Virus record (IMG/VR): IMGVR_UViG_3300014656_000015
DNA from: a virus
Length of the DNA: 64,000 bases
Direction: 5' to 3' (one strand)
The position numbers and the translations under genes are program-made. The notes beneath the pieces were generated by a model that saw only the letters and a program-made list of their open reading frames with translations, did not search any database and was not told the DNA's origin. Position 1 is the first letter of the stretch. Every line of letters begins with the position of its first letter. Shown here piece after piece: positions 8,809 to 54,992 of the stretch.

Positions 8809-8832
8809 GTTATAAGAACTATGGAAAGGAGG
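8809..8832 (+). promoter_or_regulatory. ATAAG-class promoter plus RBS module
   Basis: GTTATAAGAACTATGGAAAGGAGG, nearly identical to 54203 and 54629. Confidence 0.8.
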
Positions 8833-8836
8833 AGAC

Positions 8837-9052
8837 ATGATCTCCTTGATGCTCTTCATCCCAACCCTTCTGGTCGCCTACGGCGGCCTGAAGGCCCTAG
8901 AGATGACCTGCACCCGCGTGCAGGCCGTCTTCGAGGCGGACCGCGTCTCGATGGCCGCGGTGTGTGAGCGGCACACCGCGGAGGAGGTTGCCCAGGTTCG
9001 GGCGACCTACAAAGACTGGATAGAAAGGAGGCTGCGGTCCCGCGACCTCTGA
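8837..9052 (+). CDS. small protein with N-terminal hydrophobic segment
   Basis: Framed by the promoter/RBS module and the hairpin+AATTCCTTAG end. Confidence 0.75.
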   Translation: MISLMLFIPTLLVAYGGLKALEMTCTRVQAVFEADRVSMAAVCERHTAEEVAQVRATYKDWIERRLRSRDL

Positions 9053-9063
9053 TCCCCCACCTC

Positions 9064-9095: not shown

Positions 9096-9225
9096 GCTAA
9101 GAAACGGGGACCGGACGGGCCACCCCATCCGGTCCCTCAATAGCCTCATTCACTCAGCCCTCCTCTGCTGAGCCCAACACGGACCCGACGAGTAGGCAGT
9201 TGATACGGCTCAACCACCTGCTTCA
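9096..9225 (-). ncRNA. candidate structured small RNA
   Basis: Between a TGAAAA-N17-TATAAG promoter (9228-9256) and a hairpin+TTTCTTAGC end; three hairpins; no convincing ORF. Confidence 0.5.
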
Positions 9226-9289
9226 TCCTTATACCCCGAGCCCGAGCCGGTTTTCATGCAAGAACAGCAAAATTGCTGGGATAAGGCCC

Positions 9290-9366
9290 ATGGGAGCTGA
9301 AGCGCAGGCGCAAGGGCGAAGTCCCGGCTCTCAGGCTTCGGAGCTGCCCCGGGGTGTTTCCTTTAG
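9290..9366 (+). ncRNA. candidate structured small RNA
   Basis: Between TGCAAG-N17-GATAAG (9257-9285) and TTCCTTTAG; 9-bp stem 9291-9299/9325-9333. Confidence 0.4.
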
Positions 9367-9558
9367 GTGCCCAAGCATCCACATCGCGTAGTTCGCAATG
9401 GCGTTACGCTCAAGCTGGAGCAGGCCCTCCCGAAAGTCGTTCCGGACCAGGCACTGCTCGTACTCCTGGATGGAAGCACGGACTCGAGCCAGGTCCGCGT
9501 CGGGTCCCTGCTCCTCGGACTCGACGGGACGGCGCAGGACAAGATGTGCACTGATCAT
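9331..9558 (-). CDS. hypothetical protein
   Basis: 75 aa ORF with protein-like composition, divergent from the ligase-like gene. Confidence 0.45.
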   Translation of the reverse strand: MISAHLVLRRPVESEEQGPDADLARVRASIQEYEQCLVRNDFREGLLQLERNAIANYAMWMLGHLKETPRGSSEA

Positions 9559-9616
9559 GGGAATCAGGTTACGATGAATGGGTACGGTTCACAACCGAAA
9601 TGGAACGGAGGCTGCG

Positions 9617-17766: not shown

Positions 17767-17795
17767 ACTCTAAGTCGGGCCGATCCCGCTGTCAA
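17767..17795 (-). promoter_or_regulatory. sigma70-type promoter
   Basis: TTGACA-N17-TAGAGT. Confidence 0.75.
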
Positions 17796-17876: not shown

Positions 17877-18134
17877 ATGTCTCAGGTAGGAACCTGGTTC
17901 CGAGCCCTGGTGCTCGGAACACTATACATGGCAACGAACCTCGCTCGGGGAATGAGCGAGGAGAATGCCTGGCAGCTCGCTGCCAGGCGGACACTGGCGG
18001 GGTGCCCGTCCCGCCACTTCGAGCCCGACCTGGAAGAGATCGGCATGGAGCTCAGCTCCACCATGATCCGCTTCCGGGACGGGACCGCCACCCGGACCCC
18101 TACCGGGTGGAAGCTCGCCAAGTTTCCCACCTAG
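17877..18134 (+). CDS. small accessory cassette protein
   Basis: MSQVGTWF; framed by the promoter/RBS and GCCGC hairpin+TTCCATTAGC. Confidence 0.7.
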   Translation: MSQVGTWFRALVLGTLYMATNLARGMSEENAWQLAARRTLAGCPSRHFEPDLEEIGMELSSTMIRFRDGTATRTPTGWKLAKFPT

Positions 18135-18248: not shown

Positions 18249-18292
18249 GTAAAACGAGGAGGCTATCGTGTCATAAGAATTATGGAAAGGAG
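18249..18292 (+). promoter_or_regulatory. ATAAG-class promoter plus RBS
   Basis: GTAAAA-N17-CATAAGAATTATGGAAAGGAG. Confidence 0.75.
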
Positions 18293-18300
18293 CACAAACA

Positions 18301-18633
18301 ATGCTCACAGACCTCAGGGAGGAGGAGGTTGTGGAGATCCGCAACTTCCTCAGCGAGAGAGAGGCGCAACGCCGCGCCGCTCTGTCGCCCGTAGAACGGG
18401 CGATAGAGGATTATGATTCTGAATCGCCTCGATCGATCGTGAGATTGATCGAGGCAGTTGAGGAGCAGGAGCGCGCCGAGAGGCGCGCGGATCTGGTGCC
18501 CAAGCTGATCGGGGGCGCCGCCCTAGTCGGCCTCATCGGCGCCGAGGTCCTCGCCATCCGGGCGGCCCTCAAGGCCCCCCGGACCCGGCGCGGCGCGATC
18601 ATGCGCGCCGCCATCAAATGGCTCACCCGCTAG
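18301..18633 (+). CDS. accessory cassette protein with a C-terminal TM helix
   Basis: LIGGAALVGLIGAEVLAI segment; ends at hairpin+TTTCCCTTAGC. Confidence 0.75.
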   Translation: MLTDLREEEVVEIRNFLSEREAQRRAALSPVERAIEDYDSESPRSIVRLIEAVEEQERAERRADLVPKLIGGAALVGLIGAEVLAIRAALKAPRTRRGAIMRAAIKWLTR

Positions 18634-18699
18634 CAGAGCGGGGTCGGAGCTCCCTCCCCAGCCGCACTCGCGGCATTTCCCTTAGCACGGTATAAGCAA

Positions 18700-18778
18700 T
18701 GTGTGGAAGCAGTGCTCACCTCCCCCATAGCCAGGGGTGTCCCCCTTTGAAGCGGAGCGCTGCTTCCACATCTCTTAC
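18700..18778 (+). ncRNA. candidate hairpin sRNA with a C-rich, anti-SD-like loop
   Basis: Follows TATAAG (18691); 16-bp stem TGTGGAAGCAGTGCTC/GAGCGCTGCTTCCACA; loop begins ACCTCCCCCAT. Confidence 0.55.
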
Positions 18779-18780
18779 CT

Positions 18781-18886
18781 GGCTAAAAGAAGGGCCCCGG
18801 GGATGAGCCGGGGCCGGATGGAAAGGAGGGGGGACCGGCGCGGGAGGGGACTGCGCCGAGTCCCCTGGTAGAGTAAACGAAGCCTA
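18781..18886 (-). ncRNA. candidate anti-RBS sRNA or 3'UTR-derived RNA
   Basis: Contains CCTCCTTTCCAT between hairpins; ends in hairpin+TTCTTTTAGC. Confidence 0.45.
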
Positions 18887-19489
18887 TCACGGGTCCCGGC
18901 GTTGCGCCAGGGCCCGCGCAACGGGTGCGTAGCTCCGACGATGTTGCGGGGAGGCCCCGTAGGCCTGGAGCGCCACGAGGTGGGTCGGCGTGCCGTAGCC
19001 CATGTTGGTCTCAAAGCCGTAGGGCTCGTAGGTGGGATCCGCGGCGAGACGTCGCATCATGGAGTCCCGGGCCACCTTGGCCAGCACACTGGCCGCAGCA
19101 ATGCTGGGGACCGCAGTGTCCCCATTCACGATGCAGCGTTGCCGCAGCTTCGGAATGCCACGAAAGGGCCGAGCCCCGTCAACATAGAGCTTGGCGTCTG
19201 GGAACCGCTCCCAGCACCGGGAGACCAGGTGGACCCCGAGCCAGGACCATGCCTGATCCACCCCGAGCCGGTCCAGCAGCCTGGGGCCGGTGGCGGCCAG
19301 GCACCAGTACTTGGCCTCAGCCACGATCCGAGGCACGACAGCTTCCCGCTGCTCCGCGCTCATCTTCTTGGAATCCCGGACCGCCTCGATCCGTTGATCC
19401 ACATCCAGGATCACGGCCCCCATCACCAGGGGGCCGGCAAGGGCCCCGTTCCCCACCTCGTCAACCCCGAGCACGAGGTATGTACTCAT
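18887..19489 (-). CDS. rnhB: ribonuclease HII
   Basis: GVDEVG, DSKK, VDG, SIAAASVLAKVARD, GYGT..H, HRRSY motifs intact. Confidence 0.95.
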   Translation of the reverse strand: MSTYLVLGVDEVGNGALAGPLVMGAVILDVDQRIEAVRDSKKMSAEQREAVVPRIVAEAKYWCLAATGPRLLDRLGVDQAWSWLGVHLVSRCWERFPDAKLYVDGARPFRGIPKLRQRCIVNGDTAVPSIAAASVLAKVARDSMMRRLAADPTYEPYGFETNMGYGTPTHLVALQAYGASPQHRRSYAPVARALAQRRDP

Positions 19490-19612: not shown

Positions 19613-20680
19613 CTATGTCTCGATGCTCGGCCGATACTCGTCCCGAGTCATATCCCAGGTCCACGCCACGGCATCCGACGCCGTCTGCACATCAGGAGGT
19701 ACTCGAAGCAGATACCGACGCCGGATACCGTCGTGCTCCGTCGCATCGGTAACCTCGACCGCGACCAGCGGCTCGTCATCGGGCAGCTCCAACCGATAGA
19801 GGCAGCCCCGTTCGTCACGGGACACGACCCGCGCCCCGTCCAGGACTCGCTCCAGCCCGACCCTCTCGATCATGACACGCCGAATCTCAGCGTTAGACTC
19901 ACTCAACACCTCGTCTCGGGTCAGCTCGTCGGAGCACAGGATCACCCGTTCCGGTACCCGAACCCCGTGCCAAGCGTAAACACCCCAACCATCGGGGTAA
20001 CCAATAGCCAGGGCATCGGGACAGTGAAGCCGACCGCGCTCATCGAGATGGAGCGAGGTCGGCAGTGGGGTCACCACAGCAACATCGCTGCATGGCCACC
20101 ACCACCCGATCAGCGAAGCGAGCCGGATCAACCCATCCAGCGGTGAGATGTCGATCCCGCAAACCTCACCGAAATAAATATAGAATCCAAGCCAGGGCGC
20201 ATCATGCACCCCGTAGGCAACCCAATTGACCGAGTCCCAGACCACGGCCCGAACCGAGTCCAGGACCGAGCCCCAAACCGAGTCCAGGACCGAGCCCCGA
20301 ACCGAGTCCAGGACCGAGTCCAGGACCGAGTCCAGGACCGAGGCCCGGACCGAGGCCCGGACCGAGCCCCGGACCGAGTCCAGGACCGAGGCCCGGACCG
20401 AGGCCCGGACCGAGGCCAGGACCGAGGCCAGGACCGAGGCCCGGACCGAGAAGCTACGGAGCACTACGGTACAAAGCACACCGGCCATCGGCGATGTGCT
20501 CTTCACTATCTGTGTCGGAGGCAGTAGGCCACCGGCCCGGTAGGCAGCGTTGATCGCTGGGCGAACCCGACGCAGGTCGATTCGACCGTCTCCCGTCGCT
20601 AGGCCGATCCGGGTCCAACGCTCGGCATAGACCGGCAGGAGCGCCTCCTGCTCAGAAGTCAGTGCCTCAATCCGCGACAC
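19613..20680 (-). CDS. DUF6745-like protein with SVxx tandem repeats
   Basis: LHLDERGRLHCPD...YPDGWGVYAWHGV, NAEIRRVMIE, YLLRVPP, AVAWTW motifs. Confidence 0.85.
   Translation of the reverse strand: MSRIEALTSEQEALLPVYAERWTRIGLATGDGRIDLRRVRPAINAAYRAGGLLPPTQIVKSTSPMAGVLCTVVLRSFSVRASVLASVLASVRASVRASVLDSVRGSVRASVRASVLDSVLDSVLDSVRGSVLDSVWGSVLDSVRAVVWDSVNWVAYGVHDAPWLGFYIYFGEVCGIDISPLDGLIRLASLIGWWWPCSDVAVVTPLPTSLHLDERGRLHCPDALAIGYPDGWGVYAWHGVRVPERVILCSDELTRDEVLSESNAEIRRVMIERVGLERVLDGARVVSRDERGCLYRLELPDDEPLVAVEVTDATEHDGIRRRYLLRVPPDVQTASDAVAWTWDMTRDEYRPSIET
20228..20449 (-). repeat. 12-nt tandem repeat, about 18.5 units, encoding SV(R/L/W)(A/D/G)
   Basis: Directly visible (A/C)GGACCGAG(T/G/C)CC array. 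Confidence 0.95.
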
Positions 20681-20987
20681 GACGAAGCTCCGTGGGGTGA
20701 TACTCCCGCTGCCGCACCACCCGGTACAGGCCCGGATCGAGGTCGATCCAGGCGTGCTCCTCATGCTCCAGCCGCGTTGCCTCACGCACCCGAAGCAGCA
20801 TTGCGGCCTGCGCGACGTAGAGCGCCGCCGCGATGGCGGGGACCGCATGGGCGTGCCCCGTCGCCTCGCCCTCCGCGAGAATCAGCCGGCCACGCCCGTC
20901 CGGCTCGACCTCGGTGTACTCCTCGGACATCTCGCTCTCGTCCATCCGGACAAGCAGCACGTCTCCCTGTCTCACCTGCTTCATCAT
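20667..20987 (-). CDS. conserved partner of DUF6745 proteins
   Basis: RQGDVLL, LAEGEATGHAH, HEEH, YRVVRQREY motifs; GGAAAGGAGG RBS. Confidence 0.85.
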   Translation of the reverse strand: MMKQVRQGDVLLVRMDESEMSEEYTEVEPDGRGRLILAEGEATGHAHAVPAIAAALYVAQAAMLLRVREATRLEHEEHAWIDLDPGLYRVVRQREYHPTELRRVAD

Positions 20988-22252
20988 TCCTCCTTTCCAG
21001 CCATATAGGTGTGTCCCATAGGCTTCGTCGGTAGATCCGGTCTCACGATGGTGGGCCGGCGCCATGCTGTCTTCCGCAGAGTCCGTCCCGGCCCATGGGG
21101 TTGATTCACGAAGGCACCCTTGCGTACATGGGAGTAGGCCAGCTCCCTGCCCCCTCCCTCCCCTGCCTTCCAGCTCTTCGAGACCCGATAGCTCGAGGTC
21201 AGCGTTCCACCGACCCAACGCTCCCAGTCCGTGAACTGTCTAGCGGCCTCCCGCTTCTTCATCCGCTTCCGCTGCCTCTCCGGAGCCGGAGCATGGCCCT
21301 GCCTCTTGATGATATCGGCTCCTGGCAAGGACAGGTAGAGCAACAGATTCAGCAAGAATAGCGACAGATAGGCATAGAACTGGGAGTCGAGCACGGGATG
21401 ACCGCACACGATATATGCGGAGCGGTGCGTCCGGTCCGCGTCCCGAACGCACTCCTCCCAGCCCCGGATCGTATCGCACGCCTCCTGGATCGAATGCTCG
21501 GTCATCGCGAAGTCGGAGACGGAAAAGGACCAGCCCGGGCCCTCCTCAGGATGCATGGAGGCCCCCACACTGGACAGGAGCAGAGTACGCCGGGTCCGCT
21601 CGAGATCTACCACATACTCCTCGTATTCGGAGACCAACAAGGCCTCCAAGGTGACCGCCATCCCCTGCTCCTGGTAGGCGAACGCGCCTGGCGGGAGTAG
21701 GATGCCGAAGGCCGGAAGCGGGAGTCGGATACTATCGGGGTCCGTGACCTTCAACGTTGTGTCGTGAAGCGCCGAGACCAGATCCAGACTCGGCTCGATC
21801 CAGCACGGGGTATCCGATAGCTCGAACATCTTGAAGATGAGGTAGCCTACGGACACCGAGCCCCACTCGAGACGGGACGGCCCAGAACCCCCTACTGAGC
21901 CCCGTAGCAGATCGACACAATCCAGCCCGGCCCCAGTACGCCTCCAACGATGCGTGCATAGCTGCAACAGGTGGCTCATCCCTACCGGGACCTCACCCCC
22001 GGACACCGCGAGGAGCTCCCACATCAGGAAGGCCAGGGCCGGCTTGATGAAGGGCTGTCCCTTCAACCCGACACTGTTGGCCATCCTGACCATCCAATCC
22101 CGCTCCTGTCTCGTCGGGAGCTCGCGTACCTGACGAGAGCCCAGCTCCCGGCCCTGGACATGAGCCAGCAGCTTGAGCAATTTGGGGTTGTCCGGCCCCA
22201 GGACCTCGCCGAGCTCCCCGAAATCCAATCGAATACTTCCATTCTCCTTCAT
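20984..22252 (-). CDS. hypothetical phage protein
   Basis: 422 aa; C-terminal HVRKG..NQPHGPG...WRRP motif; first gene after an ATAAG promoter. Confidence 0.75.
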   Translation of the reverse strand: MKENGSIRLDFGELGEVLGPDNPKLLKLLAHVQGRELGSRQVRELPTRQERDWMVRMANSVGLKGQPFIKPALAFLMWELLAVSGGEVPVGMSHLLQLCTHRWRRTGAGLDCVDLLRGSVGGSGPSRLEWGSVSVGYLIFKMFELSDTPCWIEPSLDLVSALHDTTLKVTDPDSIRLPLPAFGILLPPGAFAYQEQGMAVTLEALLVSEYEEYVVDLERTRRTLLLSSVGASMHPEEGPGWSFSVSDFAMTEHSIQEACDTIRGWEECVRDADRTHRSAYIVCGHPVLDSQFYAYLSLFLLNLLLYLSLPGADIIKRQGHAPAPERQRKRMKKREAARQFTDWERWVGGTLTSSYRVSKSWKAGEGGGRELAYSHVRKGAFVNQPHGPGRTLRKTAWRRPTIVRPDLPTKPMGHTYMAGKEE

Positions 22253-22257
22253 GGGTC

Positions 22258-22332
22258 ACTCCTTTCCACAGTAAGGAACCCAACTGCTTATAACGATAAG
22301 CAGCTAAGAGTTGGGCGCGAGACGCGCCCGAA
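22258..22332 (-). promoter_or_regulatory. hairpin+CTCTTAGC end fused to an ATAAG promoter and RBS
   Basis: Minus strand GGGCGCG..CGCGCCC AACTCTTAGCTGCTTATCGTTATAAG...GGAAAGGAG; same junction as 54595-54660. Confidence 0.75.
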
Positions 22333-30299: not shown

Positions 30300-30394
30300 T
30301 TTCTCCTTTCCATCGCATCGAAGACGCTCAGGCCCTTATACCAGGATCGAGATCGGTGTCGCGCACCGGCCCCGGCTCGTGCTACGATACTGCG

Positions 30395-53642: not shown

Positions 53643-54140
53643 ATGAGTGAGGAGAAGAGGGAGTGGCCGTCCATCCTGGACGCCGCTCTCGACGACCCCG
53701 CCGCGACAGCGGCGGGGGCAGTTCTGGGGGCGGCCATCCTGGCCGTCCCCACGATGTTGGTCTGCCGGTACCTCGAGGCCAGCCCCGTCGTGACGGGGTT
53801 GAGCACCGCAGGTGCCGGCCTGGCGGGCGCCGGTGGCGGCGCGACGGCGGTGGCGGCGAGTCGCCGCCGGTCGGTGCGGCGCACAGCGACCTCGGTGGCA
53901 TCGGCCATCGAGGGGGAGCTCGACACCTTCGACCGCCGGATCGCGGCGGTCGAGGGCCGGCTGGGGGCGGGGGACACCACTGTCAGGGTGGTGTTCCCAG
54001 ATGTCGCCGAGAGCCTCGGCGGTCTGCCGGAGACTGTCCGGCAGATTCGGGACATCCTCGAGGGTGCCCCGGACCCCGAGCCCCCGCCCAAGGCCACCGT
54101 CAAGAAGGGCAAGGGCGGAGACGCCCAGCCCACCGCGTAG
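53643..54140 (+). CDS. accessory membrane protein (two TM segments plus coiled coil)
   Basis: GGAAAGGAG RBS; ends at hairpin+TTTCTTAG. Confidence 0.7.
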   Translation: MSEEKREWPSILDAALDDPAATAAGAVLGAAILAVPTMLVCRYLEASPVVTGLSTAGAGLAGAGGGATAVAASRRRSVRRTATSVASAIEGELDTFDRRIAAVEGRLGAGDTTVRVVFPDVAESLGGLPETVRQIRDILEGAPDPEPPPKATVKKGKGGDAQPTA

Positions 54141-54202
54141 TCCCACCTTCCGTTCCCACCCTCGGTCCCACCTCGTGGACCGATTTCTTAGGGGTCTATA
54201 TG

Positions 54203-54660
54203 GTTATAAGAATTATGGAAAGGAGGCAGAAATGCCAATGATGTATCGTGTGGACGTTGTCGGAGTGTACGTACGCTCCGACACGTTCGGCCTGCTGTTC
54301 TCTCGCGCCAACGAGGCGCTGGCGTGTGGCCAGGCCCTCCGGGAGATGCTCCCGGGGGTTGTCGTTACGGTAAGTCGGGTGACAGCGGACGGAGGCTGTC
54401 CGCTGATCCTTCTCACCAACTTTCCAGGGGGGGCGACGGCGGTCGTGGAGGGGGCTCCGCCCCCATTCTACGACTGTGAGGGGGCCCAGCTCCTCCCCAT
54501 CGAGAGATGGGAGGAGCTGCGAAACCGCCTCCTTCTCGATGTGGCACACCACAAAGGCACTCTCCACCGAGAGTGCCAGATTCACATTCCCTAGGCCCGG
54601 TTCTGGGCCAATTCCTTAGCTGTATATCGTTATAAGAATTATGGAAAGGAGGCAGAAATG
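54203..54660 (+). repeat. exact 32-nt direct repeat (promoter+RBS+ATG) at 54203-54234 and 54629-54660
   Basis: GTTATAAGAATTATGGAAAGGAGGCAGAAATG occurs twice. Confidence 0.95.
54232..54594 (+). CDS. accessory cassette protein
   Basis: MPMMYRVD; framed by the cassette signals. Confidence 0.75.
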   Translation: MPMMYRVDVVGVYVRSDTFGLLFSRANEALACGQALREMLPGVVVTVSRVTADGGCPLILLTNFPGGATAVVEGAPPPFYDCEGAQLLPIERWEELRNRLLLDVAHHKGTLHRECQIHIP

Positions 54661-54924
54661 TCTCAGAAAGAGGAGTTCCTGGCGGCGCTGGAGTGGAGGG
54701 TCGAACGGGCGACCCCCACAACCAGTCAGTGGAGCCCCCTCGGAGCCAGCCAGCACGGCTGGTTCCAGGAGGCGGTGGCGGCGGGGAACGTCCTCCTCGC
54801 CGCGGGATGGGCGGCTGACGTAGCCGCCCAGTTCCGTTCGGAGACTGGGGAGGGTCGGGTCGCGGACCTCCTCCTCGAGGAGAGGGCGTGGCAAGTCGCC
54901 GCGCTCATCGATCTGCTCACCTAG
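54658..54924 (+). CDS. accessory cassette protein
   Basis: Framed by the cassette signals. Confidence 0.75.
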   Translation: MSQKEEFLAALEWRVERATPTTSQWSPLGASQHGWFQEAVAAGNVLLAAGWAADVAAQFRSETGEGRVADLLLEERAWQVAALIDLLT

Positions 54925-54992
54925 CCCCGTTCCGGGGCCAATTCCTTAGTCGTGTATAGGTATAAGAATATTGAGGAAAGGAGGTACACATC

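Follow-up and report, generated by a model that had tools for sequence, protein, structure and literature searches.

The stretch of DNA analysed here (the window) comprises 64,000 nucleotides of the IMG/VR virus record IMGVR_UViG_3300014656_000015. It is part of a 197.6-kb contig of a large phage, has a GC content of 63.6% and carries a gene for the terminase large subunit. The locus of interest is a 253-nt gap between two convergent genes, a 110-aa ORFan on the plus strand to its left (18301-18633) and rnhB on the minus strand (18887-19489), which encodes an RNase HII of 200 aa (Pfam PF01351, E = 1.7e-26) and is the last gene of a minus-strand operon. The 106 nt between the rnhB stop codon (TGA, 18889-18887, minus strand) and the end of the terminator tail form the 3'UTR of this operon (18781-18886, minus strand), which the original prediction had proposed to be a trans-acting small RNA directed against the phage's own ribosome-binding sites. 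Read in the direction of rnhB, the candidate RNA consists of a 5' hairpin with the C-rich loop AGUCCCCUCCC (18830-18865), shared by the MFE and centroid structures, an unpaired linker of 14 nt, CCUCCUUUCCAUCC (18816-18829), an intrinsic terminator hairpin of 8 G-C pairs with a 7-nt loop (18793-18815), found by the terminator scan, and a U-rich tail that includes TTAG, CUUCUUUUAGCC (18781-18792), evident from the sequence and from the same scan. On the minus strand, the hairpin at 18815-18793 with its tail CTTCTTTTAG conforms to the hairpin plus TTAG grammar with which units of this phage end.

The leader consensus described below is matched exactly, as its reverse complement, by positions 18818-18829 of the linker. 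In the predicted fold of the terminated minus-strand RNA, which has an MFE of -45.3 kcal/mol and folds better than shuffled sequence (z = -4.1), the probability of being unpaired is 0.91-1.0 for every base of the motif. The claim that a minus-strand copy lies downstream of rnhB, between two hairpins and ahead of a U-rich terminator tail, was therefore upheld, with the motif unpaired at 0.91 or more. As in 3'UTR-derived small RNAs, the element lies in a coding gene's 3'UTR and uses that gene's intrinsic terminator, and its accessible linker matches three leaders at 12 of 12 positions and five further ribosome-binding sites (RBSs) at 11 of 12. Neither a TATAAG box nor a sigma70-like box was found in the 3' end of rnhB, so that a separate short RNA could come only from processing. 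Searches of Rfam with E-values up to 10 returned nothing relevant, RsaE/RoxS included; the sole hit was a chance-level match to BjrC68 inside rnhB (14.4 bits, with the cut-off at 39). ARAGORN reported neither tRNAs nor tmRNAs. Small open reading frames between 18699 and 18890 (three on the plus strand, of 44, 35 and 17 aa, and one of 35 aa on the minus strand) were rejected as proteins because of wrong-frame codon scores, which range from -0.09 to -0.41 per codon as compared with +0.27 to +0.35 for real small cassette genes. The 3'UTR region is non-coding on both strands.

The leader, ATGGAAAGGAGG, occurs exactly at 18818-18829, 8821, 54215 and 54641, all on the plus strand, and at 11 of 12 positions at 18282 (+) and 30302-30313 (-), in accordance with the sites originally reported. 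With up to one mismatch there are 11 hits in the window against 0.37 expected, a number that none of 100 shuffles reached. A start codon and an open reading frame come after 8 of the 10 other copies. One functional example is found at 54641-54652 (+), where motif and repeat scans identify the arrangement TATAAG-AATT-ATGGAAAGGAGG-N5-ATG, and further functional copies lie at 8821, 54215, 18282, 17859 and 30302(-). The plus-sense copy at 18818-18829, located by motif search, is an orphan: no ATG, GTG, TTG or near-cognate start codon is present in the 15 nt after it, as had been claimed. Functional copies form the 3' part of a repeated module of ~38 nt, composed of TATAAG, 4 nt, (A/C)TGGAAAGGAGG, 4-8 nt and a start codon, which is present in at least 6 copies (repeat family D2). 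A second leader copy that is not an RBS, ATAGAAAGGAGG, was noted at 9020-9031 (+); it matches at 11 of 12 positions, is followed by CTGCG as at 9600, falls within the last 11 codons of a 71-aa open reading frame (8837-9052) and has no start codon after it.

The original prediction had regarded the motif as the RBS specific to the cassettes, a view that did not survive a survey of gene starts in the window. The form (A/C)TGGAAAGGAG is the RBS consensus at ~14 gene starts on both strands, those of the rnhB operon included, and the core GGAAAGGAG precedes ~14 gene starts, some of which have no adjacent promoter; the copies at 9600, 13164 and 20989 lack a neighbouring promoter and retain the motif. 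The motif is thus a generic maximal Shine-Dalgarno (SD) sequence. Position 1 of the 12-mer is A, C, G or T among functional copies, and TGGAAAGGAGG is constant, in the phage as well as in the five grammar-sharing contigs described below. Most functional leaders differ from the consensus by 1-2 nt; the copy at 18818 is perfect. The sequence GAAAGGAGG, with the anti-SD CCUCCUUUC, is the class-level SD consensus in several bacterial classes (PMC10783764, Table 1). Most simply, the leader would be a maximal SD that pairs with a long 16S rRNA tail, and the class-level consensus together with the variable position 1 means that its conservation needs no small RNA. If the leader is such an SD, the minus-strand tract almost copies the 16S rRNA tail. 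To complement the cassette RBS and to carry a strong SD on the opposite strand are, in other words, one and the same statement.

A transcription unit of the phage closes with a compact G-C hairpin followed by a pyrimidine-rich spacer and TTAG. The count of strict hairpin plus TTAG sites is not above that of shuffled sequence by number alone, and the sites given here were listed by a relaxed scan. The module grammar is seen at 8811, 17849, 18272, 22292(-), 54205, 54631 and 54961. A composite of terminator stem-loop, promoter and SD is repeated beside small genes (families D2 and D16), for which no Pfam family was found and the one tested of which is an ORFan. This recalls the PeSL elements of T4-type phages, in which a terminator stem-loop, a promoter and an SD flank ORFans and crossovers were mapped to the interval from the -10 box to the SD (PMC2839356). 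The repeated composite modules beside small ORFans are common to both (PMC2839356, PMC4122927), and such crossovers could leave an orphan leader. The present modules differ in using the phage's own TATAAG promoter with a hairpin-TTAG end, in belonging to an unrelated lineage and in being known from sequence, with no minicircles or recombinants observed.

The rnhB operon begins (22329-22252, minus strand) in the same manner as the plus-strand cassettes, with a hairpin, CTCTTAGC, TATAAG, GGAAAGGAGU and ATG. In its start region (22259-22329, minus strand), the hairpin lies at 22329-22313 and is followed by CTCTTAG, by TATAAG at 22292-22287 and by the RBS GGAAAGGAGT ahead of the ATG at 22252. This start and the proposed targets share the module hairpin-TTAG-TATAAG-GGAAAGGAG. 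A motif search also located an internal RBS of the operon, CTGGAAAGGAGG, which matches the leader at 11 of 12 positions (20989-21000, minus strand). As judged from sequence, the 3'UTR could pair within its own transcript, because the operon's RBSs GGAAAGGAGU (22268) and CUGGAAAGGAGG (20989) match the leader at 10-11 of 12 positions. Since the rnhB operon and the targets share the TATAAG promoter type and the RBS type, regulator and targets are not placed in different temporal classes, and the idea of an early-to-late switch acting on a cassette regulon is not supported. The shared promoter and RBS argue against such a switch and not against feedback; the RNA would be expected to hit its own operon.

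Several further features of the operon and of neighbouring units were noted. The first gene of the operon (20984-22252, minus strand; 422 aa) is listed in the contig table with a precomputed AcrVA2-like hit (PF26125), although a Pfam scan at E <= 0.01 assigned it no family. At least 16 tandem 12-nt repeats (20204-20491) lie within the N-terminal part of a DUF6745 gene, and one assembly ends inside this array. Just past the plus-strand cassette island, a sigma70-like match was found on the minus strand (17767-17795; TTGACA, 17 nt, TAGAGT; 10 of 12 positions), so that two or three plus-strand cassettes would be flanked by the rnhB operon end on one side and by the next minus-strand promoter on the other. 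A gene-less TATAAG unit at 9096-9226 (-) folds well (z = -3.8), has the SD-like sequence AGAGGAGG in the loop of a hairpin and is closed by a 13-bp hairpin with CGUUUCUUAGC. A proposed plus-strand unit at 9287-9372 folds no better than shuffled sequence (z = +1.6), and no homology was found between the gene-less units.

On the plus strand, the gap opens with the unit end of the 110-aa gene, a hairpin at 18661-18674 and TTAG at 18682-18685, directly followed by a promoter-like TATAAG box at 18691-18696. This junction (18661-18696) is built like those at 54594-54636 and 54924-54966. It leads into a long hairpin with a 17-bp stem and the tail AUCUCUUACC, a gene-less unit at 18701-18771 (+) with a fold z-score of -4.9. 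From the likeness of its tail to other unit ends, this hairpin probably ends plus-strand transcription before the 12-mer is reached; if so, the motif is transcribed solely as part of the rnhB 3'UTR. In a plus-strand RNA starting at 18699, the motif is predicted to be mostly paired. The gene-less unit as a whole (18691-18782, plus strand), consisting of TATAAG, the long hairpin with CACCUCCCCCAU exposed inside it and the tail AUCUCUUACC, abuts the rnhB terminator head-to-head and is itself a candidate small RNA of ~80 nt.

The composition of the linker is not exceptional for its position. Pyrimidines make up at least 75% of the 12 nt preceding the hairpin at 8 of 10 compact unit ends; 9.3% of background 12-mers are as rich, and binomial arithmetic puts the probability of such an outcome at ~2e-7. 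A recurrent box, YCCCACCY, is visible at unit ends directly 5' of the terminator hairpin, and C/U-rich boxes were recorded at 9050-9063, 18122-18133, 18647-18660, 54138-54161, 54582-54593 and 54912-54923 on the plus strand and at 22349-22330 and 18829-18816 on the minus strand. The box may be part of the phage's termination signal. Given that 8 of 10 unit ends are pyrimidine-rich, a pyrimidine tract is to be expected at the position of the rnhB linker.

Its exact sequence is another matter. The duplex of the rnhB linker with the leader has an energy of -19.7 kcal/mol, which corresponds to z = -5.4 relative to shuffles of the same box, and none of 300 shuffles was as good. The other nine unit ends gave z-scores from -1.7 to +0.9, that is, nothing beyond composition. 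Complementarity to the leader beyond composition is unique to the rnhB end among the 10 unit ends, and a general design in which the 3' tract of each unit pairs with its own 5' SD was rejected on the same ground. Duplex energy did not lend itself to the prediction of targets. At a limit of -13 kcal/mol, an 18-nt linker probe found ~500 sites in the window, in line with the 457-606 found by shuffled probes, and many G-rich coding sites outscore the true leaders, whose duplexes reach -21 to -23 kcal/mol. Target prediction of this kind was dropped because it is non-specific in a GC-rich genome, where the seed performs as shuffled seeds do.

Relatives of the locus are scarce. No DNA match to the window was found in the phage collection, and a phage tblastn search returned distant RNase HII sequences only. 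In IMG/VR protein searches, rnhB gave one hit of 36% identity and the 110-aa protein none; among 5.8 billion proteins, the next-best match to the rnhB product is 47% identical, and the 110-aa protein matches itself alone. No syntenic relative of the locus was found in protein and DNA searches. Three independent assemblies are identical across the gap and in the rnhB protein, with a single difference at 18054. A metagenome scan returned 20 single hits, none of them BLAST-related to the window.

The exact cassette pattern is likewise absent from IMG/VR. A degenerate pattern identified five contigs that share the grammar (GC 52-57%, 134 kb in total), among them IMGVR_UViG_3300018080_000397. These contigs carry TATAAG-N4-NTGGAAAGGAGG-N3-8-start, with the N4 spacing fixed there as in the phage, and one of them (G005) encodes a terminase ~63% identical to that of the window and has a hairpin-TTCCTTAGC junction. 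The shared module therefore defines, by its promoter-leader grammar, a wider group of uncultivated phages. No inverted leader copy was found in the 134 kb of the five contigs, each of which is only 19-33% complete, and every leader copy in them precedes a start codon, bar one mismatched copy that is probably due to chance. The RNase HII loci of contigs G001-G003 were uninformative: they encode a different version of 275 aa that could not be aligned, and same-strand genes follow directly after it.

Taken as a whole, these observations are best explained by a leader copy of recombinational origin that now fills the pre-terminator tract of the rnhB operon, its anti-SD potential being a by-product; we give this reading a probability of roughly 40%. 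The end of the rnhB message would then be a hairpin, a 14-nt unpaired C/U tract, a G-C terminator hairpin and a U-rich TTAG tail. The leader copy would have arrived by recombination among the terminator-promoter-leader cassettes, as the 5' end of a plus-sense unit whose promoter and gene were lost. It is proposed to persist since its complement offers the minus-strand terminator module a fitting pyrimidine-rich tract. Pairing with the RBS leaders would exist in sequence as a by-product and would not amount to a dedicated early-to-late switch. Both the recombination origin and the absence of a selected regulatory role are inferred from several features of the locus. The cassette-type unit end and TATAAG box 120 nt upstream on the same plus strand are in keeping with a cassette remnant. 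In addition, a k-mer scan and inspection of the sequence revealed that the 24 nt at 18805-18828 (+) are a composite of two blocks of the 30302(-) cassette, 30378-30366 and 30314-30303. Order and orientation of the blocks are kept, and the 51 nt holding that cassette's TATAAG are omitted. The composite is suggestive of a recombination scar, a reading that both it and the non-RBS copy at 9020 fit. Its 13-nt flank match is a common GC-rich word, and 12-mers match by chance often enough here (8 observed as against 4.0 +/- 2.8 in shuffles) that the estimate of ~0.01 for such a match immediately ahead of another leader is rough and post hoc.

Three points speak against a mere remnant. The copy matches the consensus perfectly, whereas a decaying copy would be expected to have drifted. 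Unpaired linkers beside terminators are the typical position of small RNA seeds, and in the predicted fold the copy would occupy exactly such a linker. Lastly, the rnhB end alone among the 10 unit ends complements the leader beyond composition. An origin by recombination is compatible with later use as a regulator.

The foremost alternative, which we consider serious but less likely than not, is that the RNA does function against the leaders, its unpaired CCUCCUUUCCAU pairing with the consensus leader/SD of phage mRNAs and thereby lowering their translation. The active form could be the full-length mRNA or a processed 3' fragment that its two hairpins stabilise. Its targets could be other units, reached in trans, or, as in icaR, the operon's own RBSs (22268 and 20989) in cis, and it would imitate the 16S rRNA tail and so compete for SD sites. 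Much of the original prediction that pointed this way withstood analysis: the tract would be transcribed with rnhB, is followed by a terminator, is predicted to be single-stranded (unpaired at 0.91 or more in the terminated RNA) and complements the consensus at 12 of 12 positions, uniquely among unit ends beyond what composition explains (z = -5.4, 0 of 300 shuffles). What did not stand are the cassette-specific target and the temporal switch. The hairpin-linker-terminator shape (z = -4.1) and a second C-rich loop, CCCCUCCC, within the 5' hairpin also favour a functional RNA, as do the precedents of the icaR 3'UTR anti-SD (PMC3868564), RoxS/RsaE and the c4 RNA of P1/P7 (PMC12197685). Against it, the locus is a singleton and the five grammar-sharing contigs (19-33% complete) are without an inverted copy; promoter class and RBS type are common to the supposed targets, and the RNA's own operon would be hit; no internal promoter for a separate small RNA was found; C/U-rich tracts are generic at unit ends; and the C-rich seed has ~500 equal or better partners, as many as shuffled seeds have. 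Furthermore, if TATAAG is a -10 box, the fixed N4 spacing implies that promoter-adjacent mRNAs would start at positions 2-4 of the 12-mer and be without the AU. The more specific proposal that the 3' end of the rnhB operon, as a stable fragment of ~100 nt or as the mRNA tail, exposes CCUCCUUUCCA and so mimics the 16S rRNA tail towards maximal SD leaders is unlikely. If true, it would constitute an RNA-based brake on the phage's own strongly translated small genes.

Known systems resemble parts of this arrangement. In Staphylococcus aureus, an anti-SD in the 3'UTR of icaR mRNA acts on the single SD of the same message, as demonstrated by mutation, toeprinting and RNase III assays (PMC3868564). 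The rnhB 3'UTR is similar in that a C-rich anti-SD lies in the 3'UTR of a coding message and could pair with RBSs of the same transcript (22268 and 20989). It differs in that the transcript is a 3.5-kb operon and the complement fits a genome-wide consensus. With RoxS/RsaE it has in common unpaired C-rich loops or linkers, followed by an intrinsic terminator, that are complementary to G-rich RBSs (PMC5419742, PMC6158497). Unlike these RNAs, it is of phage origin, has no Rfam match, no independent promoter that could be found and no conservation, and its seed equals the whole SD consensus, not a short CCCC. The c4 RNA of P1/P7, a phage product matured from a longer transcript, blocks translation of a phage mRNA by pairing around its RBS (PMC12197685); it targets one operon (ant) by dedicated sequences, whereas the present candidate faces a genome-wide SD consensus. 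In T4, the endoribonuclease RegB shuts off a class of phage mRNAs via a shared SD motif, GGAG, a logic that matches the proposed switch (PMC1702504). RegB is a protein nuclease and the candidate here an RNA, for which no temporal class difference could be shown.

A role of the motif on the plus strand is improbable. Here, the transcript from the TATAAG box at 18691 would pass the long hairpin, and the orphan SD would act as a 30S-binding stabiliser of the STAB-SD kind or as a decoy carried by an antisense RNA to the 3' end of rnhB. The cassette-type promoter context 120 nt upstream on the same strand is in keeping with this, and the region folds well on the plus strand (z = -3.8 and -5.0). Agaisse and Lereclus are said to have described, in 1996, a GAAAGGAGG-type sequence as the STAB-SD of cry3A, and the orphan SD GAAAGGAGG is of the same sequence type. 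The resemblance extends to an SD with no start codon after it; the STAB-SD of cry3A lies in the 5'UTR of a translated message (PMC12970973). No plus-strand gene follows the present copy, and with no coding sequence downstream to stabilise (the small open reading frames are non-coding and rnhB lies opposite), the STAB-SD-like role fails. The long hairpin with its tail AUCUCUUACC resembles, moreover, a unit end ahead of the motif, which would be mostly paired in a transcript from 18699.

Less probable again is a site recognised in the DNA, with the 12-mer near the transcription start acting as an operator for a phage regulator or as the crossover point in cassette exchange; the orphan would be a landing site or spare. 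In its favour, TATAAG and leader are held at a constant N4 spacing in the phage and in the five contigs, and in PeSL modules crossovers fall between the -10 box and the SD (PMC2839356). Against it, no candidate binding protein was identified, and the leader copies at 9600, 13164 and 20989, which keep the motif with no promoter beside them, fit an SD role at the RNA level better. Pure coincidence, in which a pyrimidine-rich pre-terminator tract happens to equal the complement of the leader, draws on the rule of pyrimidine tracts here and on a leader that is nearly all purine but is hardly credible, as none of 300 same-box shuffles reaches the observed pairing and exact copies of the 12-mer are far above expectation.

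3'UTR biology has so far been described mainly in bacteria, and to our knowledge there is no prior case of the 3' end of a phage message titrating a genome-wide ribosome-binding consensus. A functional tract would thus be the first such phage case known, with T4 RegB, a protein working through the SD sequences of early genes, as the known comparison, and it would link 3'UTR biology to the timing of phage genes. If the anti-SD potential is a by-product of recombination, the locus still documents PeSL-like cassettes with a promoter and terminator grammar of their own, found in at least five other contigs and belonging to an uncultivated phage lineage, together with a pyrimidine-rich box before terminator hairpins that had not been noted previously.
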